8,788 nt of DNA from a virus (taxonomy: Duplodnaviria; Heunggongvirae; Uroviricota; Caudoviricetes): the IMG/VR virus record IMGVR_UViG_2698536657_000019; one strand, given 5' to 3'. Position 1 is the stretch's first letter. Each line of letters starts with the position of its first letter. Under the pieces are notes generated by a model that was not told the DNA's origin, made no database searches, and was given only the letters and a program-made list of their open reading frames with translations. The position numbers and the translations under genes are program-made. This document shows, piece by piece, positions 298-8,788 of this stretch.

Positions 298-710
298 GCG
301 TCGCACTCCCCGGCAGTCGCCGCCTGAAACGCCGCGCGGTACAGCACGAGAAGGCGCTGGTATTCACCGATAAAGTCTTCTGCGGTGTATATGCCTTTCA
401 TGGCCACGCTGTGCGTTGTCATTTCCAGAACAAGCGTCATCTCTGACGACGACCAGCTGATGGCGGTGCTGTCGGTTCCGTTGATGTGAAATAAACCAAA
501 ACCATCACCATCACCTTTCACGTCCACGCGGTAACGGTCGTCAACGGTGAAGGAGAAATCCCCGTATGTGGTGACGCGTCTGGCGGCCCGTTTACAGGCG
601 CGGCGGTAATAGTCGTGCCAGTCGTTCAGGCGGGAAGCCAGCCGGGGATCCACTGCCCACATCCAGTTAAAAAAATCCTGAATATCTGAAAGTCCCTTAA
701 CGTTCTTCAT
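294..710 (-). CDS. hypothetical protein, 138 aa
   Basis: ORF with SD GGAGG about 5 nt upstream of ATG 710. Its stop overlaps the next start (ATGA at 294..297). No recognisable motif. Confidence 0.6.
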   Translation of the reverse strand: MKNVKGLSDIQDFFNWMWAVDPRLASRLNDWHDYYRRACKRAARRVTTYGDFSFTVDDRYRVDVKGDGDGFGLFHINGTDSTAISWSSSEMTLVLEMTTHSVAMKGIYTAEDFIGEYQRLLVLYRAAFQAATAGECDA

Positions 711-778
711 GAGAACCTCCGGTAACAGACGTGCGGAAGCCTCCCGCGCACGGGTGCGGGATGGCTTCAGGATGTTGT

Positions 779-1006
779 TTAGTGGTGGTGTTGCTGGTTG
801 ATAAGGTCCTGCAGTTCTGCCAGGTCTTCGGCCAGATAGCTGAAGACTGCCGCGTAATACCCGGCAGCGATACCGTCGTTAAGTCGGTGTAATACGTTTG
901 ACTGCATGATGAAGGAGACAGATGCAGCCCGATGGAGTCTGCGGTTGATTTCAGTGCGGATGTGAAGACGCTCAGCGCGGGCGCGCTGTTGTTTGCGGTT
1001 TGCCAT
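779..1006 (-). CDS. hypothetical small protein, 75 aa, Arg-rich N-terminus and acidic C-terminus
   Basis: ORF with GAGG about 8 nt upstream of ATG 1006. First gene after the minus-strand terminator at about 1190. Confidence 0.5.
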   Translation of the reverse strand: MANRKQQRARAERLHIRTEINRRLHRAASVSFIMQSNVLHRLNDGIAAGYYAAVFSYLAEDLAELQDLINQQHHH

Positions 1007-1180
1007 GGTGTGGCCTCGTACGTAGTAAGTTCTGAAAACTCACCAACCCGAGGTTCCAAGCTCAGGGTGGCGAGACGTACAGGGTTGGAACTACCGGCTA
1101 CGCACGAACCCGGCCCGACCGAAGTCGGCCCCGTACGCCCCGCCATAATTCTGACGTGAAAAAGACGTGGCGATACAGTA

Positions 1181-1211
1181 CGCACAAAAAAACCGCTGGC
1201 GCGGTTGTGCG
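1181..1211 (-). terminator. candidate rho-independent terminator on the minus strand
   Basis: Minus strand reads AACCGC-GCCA-GCGGTT followed by a run of 7 T (plus strand A7 at 1186..1192). Flanking CGCAC/GTGCG extends the palindrome. The stem is short. Confidence 0.4.
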
Positions 1212-1389
1212 CGTGCATAGTCGGCGGGGTTCCAATCCCGGCACCTGTTTTATGAGGTGCGGGAAAACTGTAACCCGACCAGGCGAACGCTGGCAAGCGG
1301 TTTTTGTGTTGCGTGCTGATGTGGTTAGAATGTGGCGAATTAATATCACCTGGCAACTGGTGATTGTCTGCATACGCGGGGTGTTTCTG

Positions 1390-1854
1390 ATGAGTGATAA
1401 GCTCCCTTCTGATTACGACATTCTTTTTGACCTGTGGTACAGCTACTGGCTTGAACGTATTACATGTGTGTTTCACCGACGCGTTTCTGCTGCTCTGCGA
1501 ATCAGCGCCTTTCTGGTTGGTGTTGCGGCGTTTGTCCTGTGTGATTTTGTTGTGTTGGTACTCTTCAGTGTGGTTCTGTTTCTGCTTTGGCAGTGCATGG
1601 CTGCCAGTTTTGAACGCAGGGCTGAAAAGGCTGAATGGCAGGCAGTCAGTTACCAGCGCCTTATCAGTCAGCGCCATGTGATTAGTAAGGAATGCATGAT
1701 TGCGCGCCTCTCCTTTGTTGAGGAAAGTGACAGTCCCATCATGGAGTGCATGATTAATCTTGCCTGGAATAAAGCCTGTGAGGCGGTTGGCAGCTCTTCG
1801 CGCAATCATGTTTCGATCTCCGGTCGGTTACTCAGTCGCCTGTGCGGCTTTTGA
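1390..1854 (+). CDS. putative membrane protein, 154 aa, convergent with the early operon
   Basis: ATG at 1390. Hydrophobic stretch ISAFLVGVAAFVLCDFVVLVLFSVVLFLLW, CTG-dominated Leu codons. Possible promoter TAGAAT at 1326..1331. SD is weak (GGGG 9 nt upstream). Overlaps the 3' end of 1828..2178 by 27 nt. Competes with a minus-strand ORF starting at 1809 that has its own SD. Confidence 0.35.
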   Translation: MSDKLPSDYDILFDLWYSYWLERITCVFHRRVSAALRISAFLVGVAAFVLCDFVVLVLFSVVLFLLWQCMAASFERRAEKAEWQAVSYQRLISQRHVISKECMIARLSFVEESDSPIMECMINLAWNKACEAVGSSSRNHVSISGRLLSRLCGF

Positions 1855-2178
1855 TTTGCCAAGCAGCTGTGCGACAGTTTCGCCGGCCGCCCGATTTTCC
1901 GGGAATGACACCGGCATGTTCAGCTTGAGTGCCATTGCGTACTCAGCCCGTGCGCCAGCGGACTCTTCCCATCCATCCAGTAAGTAAATGGCATCGGCAC
2001 ACATGAGCATCGGAATACAAATGCTCATGTACTGCTGCTGGCTTAATCCGTCAGGCAGTACGGCAGGATTAAGAACAATGTTTCCGGCGTACCTAAGCTT
2101 CAGGTCCGCCAGGCAAAACTCCAGTCTGTTGTCGTCTTTGTATCCGGTCATGGGACCGGCGATATAAATCACGGCCAT
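1828..2178 (-). CDS. probable DUF4406 / nucleoside 2-deoxyribosyltransferase-like protein, 116 aa
   Basis: N-terminal MAVIYIAGPMTG and later LLDGWEES-GA--E resemble the DUF4406 / deoxyribosyltransferase-like family as I remember it. SD GGGAGGT about 6 nt upstream of ATG 2178. Confidence 0.55.
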   Translation of the reverse strand: MAVIYIAGPMTGYKDDNRLEFCLADLKLRYAGNIVLNPAVLPDGLSQQQYMSICIPMLMCADAIYLLDGWEESAGARAEYAMALKLNMPVSFPENRAAGETVAQLLGKSKAAQATE

Positions 2179-6351: not shown

Positions 6352-6777
6352 TTAAGCTGCTTTTTTACTGATACGTTTATTCCGTAAACCAGCTGCTGGC
6401 TTAAATAAAAAAAGTCGGTTTTCCCATTCGTGCCATTCTTGCGGTGCGTTTTCAGTGAGTCGATCGCAGGCTTCATCCCACGCTTTCCGGTTGATGTAGA
6501 GTTCGGCGTTTCCGCCAGGCTTGAGAGGGTCCGCCATGTACACAGCGGGTAATTTCCCTGCTTTTGCCATGCTCACGATGGCGTCAACGGTCTTGCCGAT
6601 ATACATCGCAAACCCTTCTTTTGACAGGAGATGAGAAGGGTTTTGTGAAAGCCTGATTTCCTGGCGTTCAGGGGCTTTGCGCCCGGTCTTTTGGTGTGCG
6701 GTTTCTGGCGCATCTGTCAACTGATCGCACTGTGTTTCGGCAGGCGATTCAGGCGCGTTTTGAGTGACTTCTTGCAT
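6352..6777 (-). CDS. cox: Cox-like excisionase / transcriptional regulator with an N-terminal extension, 141 aa
   Basis: C-terminal half (FAMYIGKTVDAIVSMAKAGKLPAVYMADP...AW) resembles P2 Cox (FAKLIGK...GKLPVIDMTDP...AW) from memory. Start set at ATG 6777 with strong SD GGAGGA about 7 nt upstream. Divergent from the repressor. Confidence 0.75.
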   Translation of the reverse strand: MQEVTQNAPESPAETQCDQLTDAPETAHQKTGRKAPERQEIRLSQNPSHLLSKEGFAMYIGKTVDAIVSMAKAGKLPAVYMADPLKPGGNAELYINRKAWDEACDRLTENAPQEWHEWENRLFLFKPAAGLRNKRISKKAA

Positions 6778-6884
6778 CTGGTATCCTCCGTTATTGGTGC
6801 TATTTCTATTTAGCACCAGTTAGAGCCGCCTAGATTGTCTCTAGGTGTGTTTGTTGATGTATAAACTAAGAGAGTTAACTCACT
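6778..6884. promoter_or_regulatory. immunity switch region between cox and the repressor, with operator-like repeats
   Basis: 107-bp intergenic region between divergent cox and C. Perfect inverted repeat TGGTGCTA-N8-TAGCACCA (6795..6818), CCTAGA-N5-TCTAGG (6829..6845), TAG motifs phased at about 10 bp (6811, 6821, 6831, 6842), and a -10-like TATAAA (6860..6865) upstream of C. Confidence 0.6.
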
Positions 6885-7184
6885 ATGTCAACTAACGTAG
6901 GTGAAAAAATTAGAATCATGCGTAAGTCTGAAATGCTTACACAAGAAAAAATGGCTGAAATTACAGGGCTCACGGTAGCGGCCCTGCGTCAATATGAACA
7001 GGGGAGAAATGAGCCAAATCTTGAATCCACAAAAAAGCTGCTCAAGTCTCCCGTCTTCCGTAAATACCGTGACTGGTTTTTGTTCGATGAGGTCGAACCA
7101 AAGGCCGGGCAGGTGGTACCGGCTCTCGCACACATTGGGCAAAGCGAAGCGGAATCATCCCACTCCGGCAAGAAGACTGGTTAA
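6885..7184 (+). CDS. C: P2 C-type immunity repressor (XRE-like HTH), 99 aa
   Basis: 99 aa, HTH segment LTQEKMAEITGLTVAALRQYEQG, C-terminus APALAHIGQSE...SHSGKKTG resembling P2 C as remembered. Lies immediately upstream of and co-oriented with int. Confidence 0.8.
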   Translation: MSTNVGEKIRIMRKSEMLTQEKMAEITGLTVAALRQYEQGRNEPNLESTKKLLKSPVFRKYRDWFLFDEVEPKAGQVVPALAHIGQSEAESSHSGKKTG

Positions 7185-7250
7185 CGGTCCATCTGGCCTT
7201 TATTTCTCAAAATTGTGATCAAGATGATGTTTTCATTGGGGGGCTTCCTT

Positions 7251-8246
7251 ATGTCGATTAAGAAGCTCGCTGATGGCAAATACTGTGTGGACGTGCGGCC
7301 TGCTGGATCTGAAGGAAGAAGATTTCGGCGGCGATTTCCTACCCGTGGTGAAGCGGCGATGTATGAACGCCATGTTCTGACGCATTATCACGATAAGGAC
7401 TGGGTCGAAAAACCTATTGAACGTAAAGCGTTAAGCGATCTTCTGGAACTGTGGTGGGTGTACCACGGTAAGAATCATCGTTATGGCGCGATGAATCGGG
7501 TCAGAATTGAAGCGGTTCTTCGTGATATGCAAGAGCTTGGTATTAACAGAAGTGACCACTTAACCCGAAAAAATATTATCAGATATCGCCTTGAATTAAT
7601 GAATCGCGGAATTAAGCAGTCAACGGTAAATCGTTATTGTGCAATGATGAGCGGTTTCTTTGAAAAGCTGATTGATGTTGAAGAGTTTGTGGGTGATAAC
7701 CCGTTTCACGAGATACGCAAGCTAACAATTAATCAGCCGGAAATGGCTTATCTTGCACATGATGATATTCCCAGGCTAACCGCACTTTTATCTGGCGATA
7801 ATCTTAAGGCTGTATTGTTAAGCCTGGCTACAGGCGGGCGCTGGGGTGAAGTTGCCAATATTAAAGGTGAACACATAATTGGTGGGAAGGTTATTTTCAT
7901 GGAGACAAAGAATGGATCGCGGCGGGTTATTCCTATAGCTAAAGATCTTGAATCTCTGATTAAAGTCAAAGCGACGGGAAGATTAATGAACCCCAGTTAT
8001 GCGATAGTCAGAAGTGCAATAAGGACTGTGCGGCCTGATTTACCAGTCGGTCAGTCTGTGCATGTTTTACGGCACACATTCGCAACTCATTTCATGATAA
8101 ATGGAGGGAACATTATTACCCTTCAGCGTATTTTAGGGCACAGCACAATTCAGCAGACAATGACCTATGCGCACTTTGCACCTGATTATCTCCAGGACGC
8201 GGTAAGGTTCAATCCGGTTGCGGAGTTGTCCAGATTTTGCCCATAA
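7251..8246 (+). CDS. int: P2-like tyrosine integrase, 331 aa
   Basis: N-terminus MSIKKLADGKYCVDVRPAG parallels P2 Int. Catalytic motifs TGGRWGE, HVLRHTFATHF, LGHSTIQQTMTYAHF (Tyr nucleophile). Start moved from the ORF-track GTG 7215 to ATG 7251. Confidence 0.9.
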   Translation: MSIKKLADGKYCVDVRPAGSEGRRFRRRFPTRGEAAMYERHVLTHYHDKDWVEKPIERKALSDLLELWWVYHGKNHRYGAMNRVRIEAVLRDMQELGINRSDHLTRKNIIRYRLELMNRGIKQSTVNRYCAMMSGFFEKLIDVEEFVGDNPFHEIRKLTINQPEMAYLAHDDIPRLTALLSGDNLKAVLLSLATGGRWGEVANIKGEHIIGGKVIFMETKNGSRRVIPIAKDLESLIKVKATGRLMNPSYAIVRSAIRTVRPDLPVGQSVHVLRHTFATHFMINGGNIITLQRILGHSTIQQTMTYAHFAPDYLQDAVRFNPVAELSRFCP

Positions 8247-8336
8247 ACGGGGACTAAATGGCACTATTCCGAACTACTTTGAACTCGTAACTATTTGATA
8301 TATAAAGGGGGATAGCGATACGCGCTACCCCCTTAT

Positions 8337-8363
8337 GCCACCTTCGGGTGGCGTTGTTTTATG
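8337..8363 (+). terminator. rho-independent terminator downstream of int
   Basis: GCCACC-TTCG-GGTGGC hairpin (8337..8352) followed by GTTGTTTTATG. Preceded by a second imperfect 12-bp hairpin at 8305..8334. Confidence 0.55.
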
Positions 8364-8494
8364 CGATGTATCTCGCGATTTTTTTTTGTAACTTTTCCAT
8401 CTTTTGCTTTTCTCTCCGAGCCGCTTTCCATATCTGCAATCGCATAAAAAACTCTGCTGGCGTTCACAAATGTGCAGGGGTAAAACGTTTCCTG

Positions 8495-8536
8495 TAGCAC
8501 CGTGAGTTATACTTTGTATAACTTAAGGAGGTGCAG
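8495..8536 (+). promoter_or_regulatory. chpS promoter/operator region with SD
   Basis: Perfect inverted repeat AGTTATAC-TTT-GTATAACT (8505..8523) overlapping a -10-like TATACT (8508..8513). SD AAGGAGG (8525..8531) 5 nt before ATG 8537. Confidence 0.4.
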
Positions 8537-8788
8537 ATGCGTATTACCATAAAAAGATGGGGGAACAGTGCAGGTATGGTCATTCCCAATATCGTAATGA
8601 AAGAACTTAACTTACAGCCGGGGCAGAGCGTGGAAGCGCAGGTGAGCAACAACCAACTGATTCTGACACCCATCTCCAGGCGCTACTCGCTTGATGAACT
8701 GCTGGCACAGTGTGACATGAACGCCGCGGAACTTAGCGAGCAGGATGTCTGGGGTAAATCCACCCCTGCGGGTGACGAAATATGGTAA
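8537..8788 (+). CDS. chpS: ChpS (ChpBI) antitoxin, MazE/AbrB-fold, 83 aa
   Basis: Translation MRITIKRWGNSAGMVIPNIVMKELNLQPGQ... matches E. coli ChpS as remembered. Its stop overlaps an ATG at 8783 (ATGGTAA) that would begin chpB (MV...), cut off by the window end. Confidence 0.9.
   Translation: MRITIKRWGNSAGMVIPNIVMKELNLQPGQSVEAQVSNNQLILTPISRRYSLDELLAQCDMNAAELSEQDVWGKSTPAGDEIW

Follow-up and report, generated by a model that had tools for sequence, protein, structure and literature searches.

Evidence for an attR of a P88-like Peduoviridae prophage in the ytfP terminator hairpin of Escherichia coli

The window, a stretch of 8,788 nucleotides from the virus record IMGVR_UViG_2698536657_000019, holds a phage lysogeny module at its right-hand side, followed by the antitoxin gene chpS. 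The module comprises a Cox-like excisionase/repressor gene on the minus strand (6352..6816; mechanical ORF; Pfam PF10743 Phage_Cox, E 1.4e-27) and, divergent from it, the plus-strand genes of a C-type immunity repressor with a helix-turn-helix domain (6885..7184; Pfam HTH_3, E 3.7e-9), in a position matching that of the ‘C protein’ of phage P88, and of an intact tyrosine integrase of 331 residues (7251..8246; Pfam Int_N and Phage_integrase). Annotations of related prophages place a ‘Cox family DNA-binding protein’ at the equivalent position; since these annotated homologues comprise 141 residues, the true start of the Cox-like frame is probably internal to 6352..6816. The repressor gene is the first of the C-int operon, whose transcription is directed at the prophage-host junction. 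The arrangement cox (−), C (+), int (+) and attachment core (8337..8353), with int adjoining the attachment site, is that of a P2-type lysogeny module, and gene order and Pfam matches fit the P2 family. Between int and chpS lies an intergenic stretch of 290 bp (8247..8536), and a recomputation of this interval returned all the features that the preliminary description had listed there. The chpS gene (8537..8788, plus strand) is 100% identical in DNA sequence to the annotated chpS/chpB of E. coli MY1-8, and its end is overlapped by the chpB start codon at 8782. Much further to the left, in the prophage early region, Rfam recognised two RNAs above the gathering score on the minus strand of 1063..1260, a C4 antisense RNA (1063..1150, 82.6 bits) and the Hfq-binding RNA isrK (1186..1260, 67.1 bits). 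Both fall within a mechanical frame of 370 codons (697..1809, minus strand) without a Pfam match; the frame is probably a false call, and the position is likely to be that of a C4/isrK-type antisense control module.

The integrase runs at full length from the ATG at 7251 to the stop codon at 8246 and matches PF00589 and PF24624. Its sequence agrees completely (100%) with that of the integrase encoded by a complete prophage of E. coli O22:H8 strain 154; it is 80% identical to the enzyme of the inducible phage P88 and 58% to P2-group integrases. Residues R197, K220, H271, R274, H297 and Y306 are all found and are invariant with respect to P88 Int; we take them to have the roles of the R-K-H-R-H-Y residues of lambda and P2 Int, by analogy with these enzymes. 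Together with the N-terminal arm-/core-binding region, this catalytic set marks a P2-type integrase. The preliminary description had left room for int being a remnant without a cognate attachment site; its full length, its catalytic residues and its complete identity to the integrase of a prophage flanked by 17-bp repeats speak otherwise.

The transition from phage to host DNA could be read from unoccupied genomes. In a megablast of 8200..8788 against 5426 complete E. coli genomes, thousands of genomes matched only from position 8334/8337 onwards. The unoccupied locus of E. coli MY1-8 has the order tamB-ytfP-chpS-chpB-ppa without an insert, with the ytfP stop codon followed by aataaaagcacGCCACCTTCGGGTGGCGttgttttatgcg; window positions 8337..8788 are identical to it throughout (452/452), base 8336 differs, and there is no identity further to the left. 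The prophage boundary is 8336|8337. It thus lies inside the interval in which the preliminary description had expected the junction and the attachment site, and the rest of the interval to the right is host DNA. A boundary at the first hairpin downstream of int, or further to the right, is incompatible with the empty-site alignment.

The extent of the core follows from strain 154, in which a complete P2-type prophage of ~33 kb is located between ytfP and ppa. Its attL reads cacGCCACCTTCGGGTGGCGcgaaaat (longer extract aaagcacGCCACCTTCGGGTGGCGcgaaaattgatg) and its attR tatGCCACCTTCGGGTGGCGttgtttt (longer extract cccttatGCCACCTTCGGGTGGCGttgttttatg); the two share 17 bp, and therefore the common core is GCCACCTTCGGGTGGCG, at 8337..8353 of the window. 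The identical core was seen as a direct repeat at both ends in relatives, and it is also found in the empty attB. Junctions from nine lysogens (strain 154 and eight more) and the P88 phage record were combined into one consistent table. P88-type phages (attP catGTCACCTTCGGGTGGCAcgaaaa) and the host have different bases at positions 2 and 17 of the core. In the corresponding lysogens, position 2 is the host C in attL and the phage T in attR, and position 17 is the phage A in attL and the host G in attR. From this sorting of the mismatches it follows that the exchange takes place inside CACCTTCGGGTGGC (8339..8352). Since the left end of the window prophage lies outside the window, about 25 kb beyond its start, and the collection, whose best match to the full window is 94.7% identical, lacks the source genome, we infer the attL of the window prophage, its completeness and its excision from these relatives.

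The following course of events is most likely. The phage tyrosine integrase recombined attP with a host attB that consists of the stem-loop of the Rho-independent terminator just 3' of ytfP. Strand exchange occurred inside 8339..8352, leaving the phage P arm to the left of the core and unaltered host DNA to its right, and the attP of the excised circle would read ...cccttatGCCACCTTCGGGTGGCGcgaaaa.... The core being the hairpin, integration duplicates it. The interval 8247..8536 is, with high confidence, the attR of a P2-family (Peduoviridae), P88-like prophage inserted in the ytfP terminator hairpin, that is, an ordinary attR of a known kind of temperate phage.

The core hairpin (stem 8335..8354, −13.0 kcal/mol, z −3.0) consists of eight pairs closed by a loop of four nucleotides (TTCG) and is followed by the tail TGTTTTATGC, which together make up the pattern of an intrinsic terminator. 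At the empty site it sits 12 bp after the ytfP stop codon and is called terminator-like there too. Because the window is identical to the empty site from 8337 onwards, this second hairpin is the host ytfP terminator hairpin, and the first hairpin after int (8305..8334, z −4.5) is phage DNA. Both of the tandem hairpins named in the preliminary description fold, but they do not form an equivalent pair, as the second is the attachment core, with host sequence from 8337 rightwards. In the window, core hairpin and host U-tract TTGTTTTAT form a rebuilt intrinsic terminator (8335..8364, plus strand, terminator-like call), which is now positioned 3' of int; with the host U-tract kept at attR, C-int transcripts would meet the terminator formerly met by tamAB-ytfP transcripts, the group tamA-tamB-ytfP ending with ytfP. 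At attL, GCGAAAA comes next to the ytfP hairpin and the U-tract is lost; the plus-strand terminator call is gone and only a minus-strand one is found, while the plus-strand call remains at attR. In one host allele, both strands of the empty-site hairpin are terminator-like; the other allele lacks the minus-strand tail.

A second terminator-like hairpin of the host (8362..8387, plus strand) follows, with its stem-loop at 8362..8377 and the T9 run (8379..8387) as its tail. The preliminary description had pointed out the T9 run, which is plain host sequence identical in unoccupied strains; its list lacked the small hairpin in front of it, as well as the 45-bp palindrome described below. The other host allele has a changed stem at this place (GCGAG-ACGA-CTCGC), keeping the hairpin without the T9 run. 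Over 6700..8788, five terminator-like sites were counted versus 1.8 ± 1.2 in shuffled sequences, and the terminator functions proposed here are read from such patterns.

Three blocks between int and the core are conserved in both integrase lineages at this site (window type and P88 type), namely an arm-site block, an IHF block and the first hairpin, and their proposed roles are predictions. The first block, GAGTTGTCCAGAT(T/A)TTGCCCATAAA, is invariant across both lineages and contains TTGTCCAGATTTTGCC (8226..8241, plus strand), a candidate arm-type Int-binding site on the P arm that overlaps the last int codons. It includes TGTCCAGA, the reverse complement of TCTGGACA, which agrees in 7/8 positions with the P2-type arm consensus tgTGGaCa (PMC3448106). 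A direct repeat of the site (15/16, TTGTCCACATTTTGCC) is found on the P' arm in the attL of relatives. One 16-bp repeat per arm is accordingly seen, at 8226..8241 in the window and in the relatives' attL, and a second arm-type repeat was recognised neither on the P arm of the window nor on the relatives' P' arm; P2 and 186 carry two or more per side (PMC3448106). The P' arm-type site, TGTGGACA, is also a −35-like hexamer within a weak promoter-like match directed at the core (TGGACA-18-TATTTT, 9/12), which recurs in three lineages (L003 7924..7953; L010 625..654; L006 35265..35294).

Between arm site and core lies a predicted IHF site, TATCAAATAGTTA (8288..8300, minus strand), the only match to the IHF consensus WATCAANNNNTTR in the window. 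The match count alone is not significant, with 0.40 matches expected by chance and at least one in 66/200 shuffles; the IHF block GTAACTATTTGATATAT is nearly invariant in both phage lineages. The phage-borne first hairpin (8305..8334), 2 nt from the core and missing at the empty site, folds with −19.9 kcal/mol, and none of 200 shuffles was equally good. CTTTATATAT comes after it on the minus strand, where the pattern scan calls it terminator-like. A hairpin with another stem sequence occupies this place in JNEC-type and P88-type phages; the stems by lineage are GGGGG.TAGCG, GGGGTGGT and GGGAGGCC, and the position of the hairpin is kept. These variants were folded independently, MAFFT placing the two stem types two columns out of register, and the equivalents of the JNEC-type and DETEC-type gave weak folds (z −1.5 and −1.8). 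Because int, running rightward, and the tail/hok genes, running leftward, converge on attP in the circular phage, the hairpin is probably a two-way terminator of the phage, at the place where int transcription and leftward late/cargo transcription would meet.

Among known systems, Escherichia phage P88 (Xuanwuvirus P88, Peduoviridae) comes closest; it shares gene order and core with the window phage, and its sequence record begins exactly at the core. P88 was described as mitomycin-inducible and plaque-forming, with a 14-bp attP GCCACCCGAAGGTG (Chen et al., PMC5285337), which is the reverse complement of window positions 8339..8352. The two phages differ in that their C-int DNA is only ~77% identical and the sequence of the first hairpin is another one; the core of the window phage matches the host over 17 bp, that of P88 over 14, with C in the window phage versus T in P88 at core position 2, and G in relatives of the window phage versus A in P88 at position 17. 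The available text of the P88 paper (PMC5285337) holds no statement that the site is the ytfP terminator, and a search of the literature for a prophage site at ytfP/chpS yielded nothing specific and no paper naming the ytfP terminator as an attachment site. By analogy with the inducible P88, and given that several phage variants are found at the site in more than one host allele, the system may be active in integration and excision. PhiSM, a Citrobacter relative of P88, integrates at another site, pdxB, which means that attachment specificity varies within the group and that PhiSM does not extend the ytfP family.

With the P2 system of Int, Cox and IHF, the window phage shares a Cox homologue, a candidate arm-type motif resembling the P2 consensus and an intergenic, non-tRNA target, as P2-type integrases typically target intergenic sites (PMC3448106). 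Core sequence and host site differ from those of P2, and one arm repeat per arm is recognised. A further comparison is offered by phage 186, by Fels-2 and by PhiNP at ssrA, which integrate into the stem-loops of tRNA or tmRNA genes (PMC3448106, PMC6456863). Like these, the window phage has a short palindromic core, and its copy rebuilds a host element on one side; unlike these, it targets a terminator hairpin and not an RNA gene, and only the attR copy regains the U-tract.

Among the 5426 complete E. coli genomes, a related int was found at this junction in 35, in several host alleles, and the contiguous empty site in 5199 (about 96%), K-12 derivatives included. The host spacer occurs as a T9 allele and a ATTCTGTTTT allele. 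The two integrase lineages, 80% identical, are each found in both spacer alleles, with or without chpSB, which speaks for repeated, independent integration. chpSB is missing from strain 154, UMNF18 and ETEC1732, where the prophage is flanked by ytfP and ppa; in UPEC132 the gene downstream of the prophage is licT. Since integration also occurs in chpSB-less strains, the target is the ytfP terminator and chpSB a bystander, and an insertion targeted at chpSB is ruled out by these lysogens. In ETEC1732 (L019 1..552), the integrase of a related prophage at the same attachment site is truncated by an IS66-family element, so decayed copies do exist at the ytfP/chpS locus.

Just inside attL, the relatives carry variable cargo (L006 33984..35180; L010/L012/L014/L016 748..1070; L003 8166..8838), which includes one or two Hok/Gef toxin genes. 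In eight of the nine lysogens examined, the first gene has the same orientation as ytfP; it encodes a BRCT-domain protein in strain 154, hypothetical proteins in JNEC-KY202, UPEC132 and ETEC1732, and, in the P88-type prophages of CFIAFB20190157, UMNF18, BEC1-S17 and RM8082, a DUF4177 protein together with a YidD-like protein. In DETEC-S792 the first annotated gene is hok/gef, in opposite orientation to ytfP.

Two rival readings have to be weighed. According to one of them, raised by the preliminary description, which saw the insertion as directly upstream of a toxin-antitoxin promoter, the prophage rewires chpSB, read-through from the C-int operon or the loss of upstream elements changing its expression. 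It is true that int is transcribed towards chpS and that the junction lies only 200 bp upstream of the chpS ATG. However, the sequence from the terminator stem to chpS is the same as in unoccupied strains, two terminator-like hairpins and the phage hairpin stand between int and chpS, DNA specific to chpSB begins only at 8488, 134 bp past the attR terminator, and is unaltered, and the same integration is found in strains that have no chpSB. ‘Directly upstream’ is thus too strong, the insertion being separated from chpS by the rebuilt terminator, a second hairpin and 200 bp of native DNA; with terminator and native DNA in place, an effect on chpSB appears unlikely, we infer that integration leaves its expression unaffected, and the rewiring as such is highly improbable. 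The other reading regards the element as a defective remnant, its int and junction being relics without a cognate left end or the capacity to excise. The left end indeed lies outside the window, decayed copies such as that of ETEC1732 are known at the site, and tail-fibre pseudogenes are annotated in related prophages. Against this stand the full-length integrase with its catalytic residues, uninterrupted Cox-like and C-type repressor frames with strong Pfam matches, an uninterrupted early region in the window, the perfect 17-bp core, and closest relatives of ~33 kb in which both attachment sites are present, so that a remnant is quite unlikely, and a prophage with a genuine attR is the preferred reading.

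A third reading concerns the choice of a terminator hairpin as core, for which a regulatory use may be envisaged in three parts. The two-way host terminator could be split such that each prophage end keeps a terminator facing outward, which is possible but rather doubtful; if true, the split terminator would insulate ytfP and chpSB or ppa from phage transcription, an advantage that is itself speculative and not to be expected. Transcription of tamAB-ytfP, deprived of the U-tract, could extend into the cargo gene that lies in the same orientation at the left end, again an unlikely event on balance, even if gene co-orientation and the lost U-tract suggest a host-driven expression of this gene. 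Finally, int could gain a U-tract terminator only when integrated, amounting to a retroregulation like that by lambda sib; this, too, we hold with little confidence, and the same small credence applies to its corollary that the 3' end of the int mRNA would depend on the integration state, as with sib. In support of such a use one may cite the hairpin of the empty site, which in one host allele is terminator-like for either strand, the minus-strand call alone kept at attL and the plus-strand call at attR, and the co-orientation of the first attL gene with ytfP in most of the lysogens. The argument is drawn from pattern scans throughout, however; the second host allele lacks the minus-strand tail, and in P88-type phages the core is separated from the cargo gene by an additional terminator-like hairpin. 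Dyad symmetry of the core would be expected for any tyrosine recombinase site and calls for no regulatory reason.

The assignment of the attR fixes the prophage end at 8336|8337 and the core at 8337..8353, which permits a clean annotation and the design of PCRs for attP and attB, and it removes the suggestion that chpSB is targeted or disturbed. It leaves current understanding unchallenged, adding to the literature only that the 14-bp attP of P88 coincides with the loop and the inner part of the stem in the ytfP terminator hairpin, and that a second integrase lineage uses the P88 site with a 17-bp match. The ytfP site could serve as a landing site, as about 96% of complete E. coli genomes, K-12 among them, have it intact.

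To the right of the core, positions 8354..8487 constitute the spacer downstream of ytfP that is common to E. coli with and without chpSB, as matches in chpSB-less genomes stop at 8487. A small gene or structured RNA in this spacer was considered and rejected, its folding being ordinary on the two strands (z −0.7 and −0.25) and no Rfam match being found; a minus-strand frame of 55 codons (8333..8500) is treated as spurious because it runs through the terminator hairpin. The spacer also holds a perfect 11-bp inverted repeat (TTTTATGCGAT/ATCGCATAAAA, 8357..8367 and 8439..8449, 71 nt apart), which is not conserved in the other host allele, lies in a region folding with z −0.7, and may be due to chance.

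The chpSB-specific upstream region (8488..8536, plus strand), found only in chpSB-plus strains, contains the Shine-Dalgarno sequence AAGGAGG and presumably promoter and operator. The preliminary description had proposed a chpS promoter with a perfect 8-bp inverted repeat. The repeat stands (AGTTATAC/GTATAACT, 8505..8512 and 8516..8523), as plain host sequence, and forms the centre of a 45-bp imperfect palindrome (8492..8536, with 21-nt arms 8492..8512 and 8516..8536). The promoter fared less well: a scan of 8354..8536 returned no site resembling the sigma-70 consensus and no mapped promoter was found, which leaves ‘promoter’ a presumption. Type II toxin-antitoxin loci, to which chpSB (chpBIK) belongs, are generally autoregulated, and by analogy the palindrome is presumed to be the chpS operator; both the antitoxin-toxin overlap and the upstream palindrome of such loci are found at 8492..8788. 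As RNA (8488..8540), the leader palindrome would draw the Shine-Dalgarno sequence into a paired hairpin of −19.8 kcal/mol (z −4.1), which could act as a translational element as well as an operator. In E. coli, chpSB behaves as a presence/absence module: in strains without it, position 8487 is followed by ~130 bp, after which the common sequence resumes just past the chpB stop codon. This ~130-bp segment (L006, minus strand ~2090..1950) includes 66 bp that are 80% identical to part of chpB, and the arrangement looks like a decayed or deleted chpSB.
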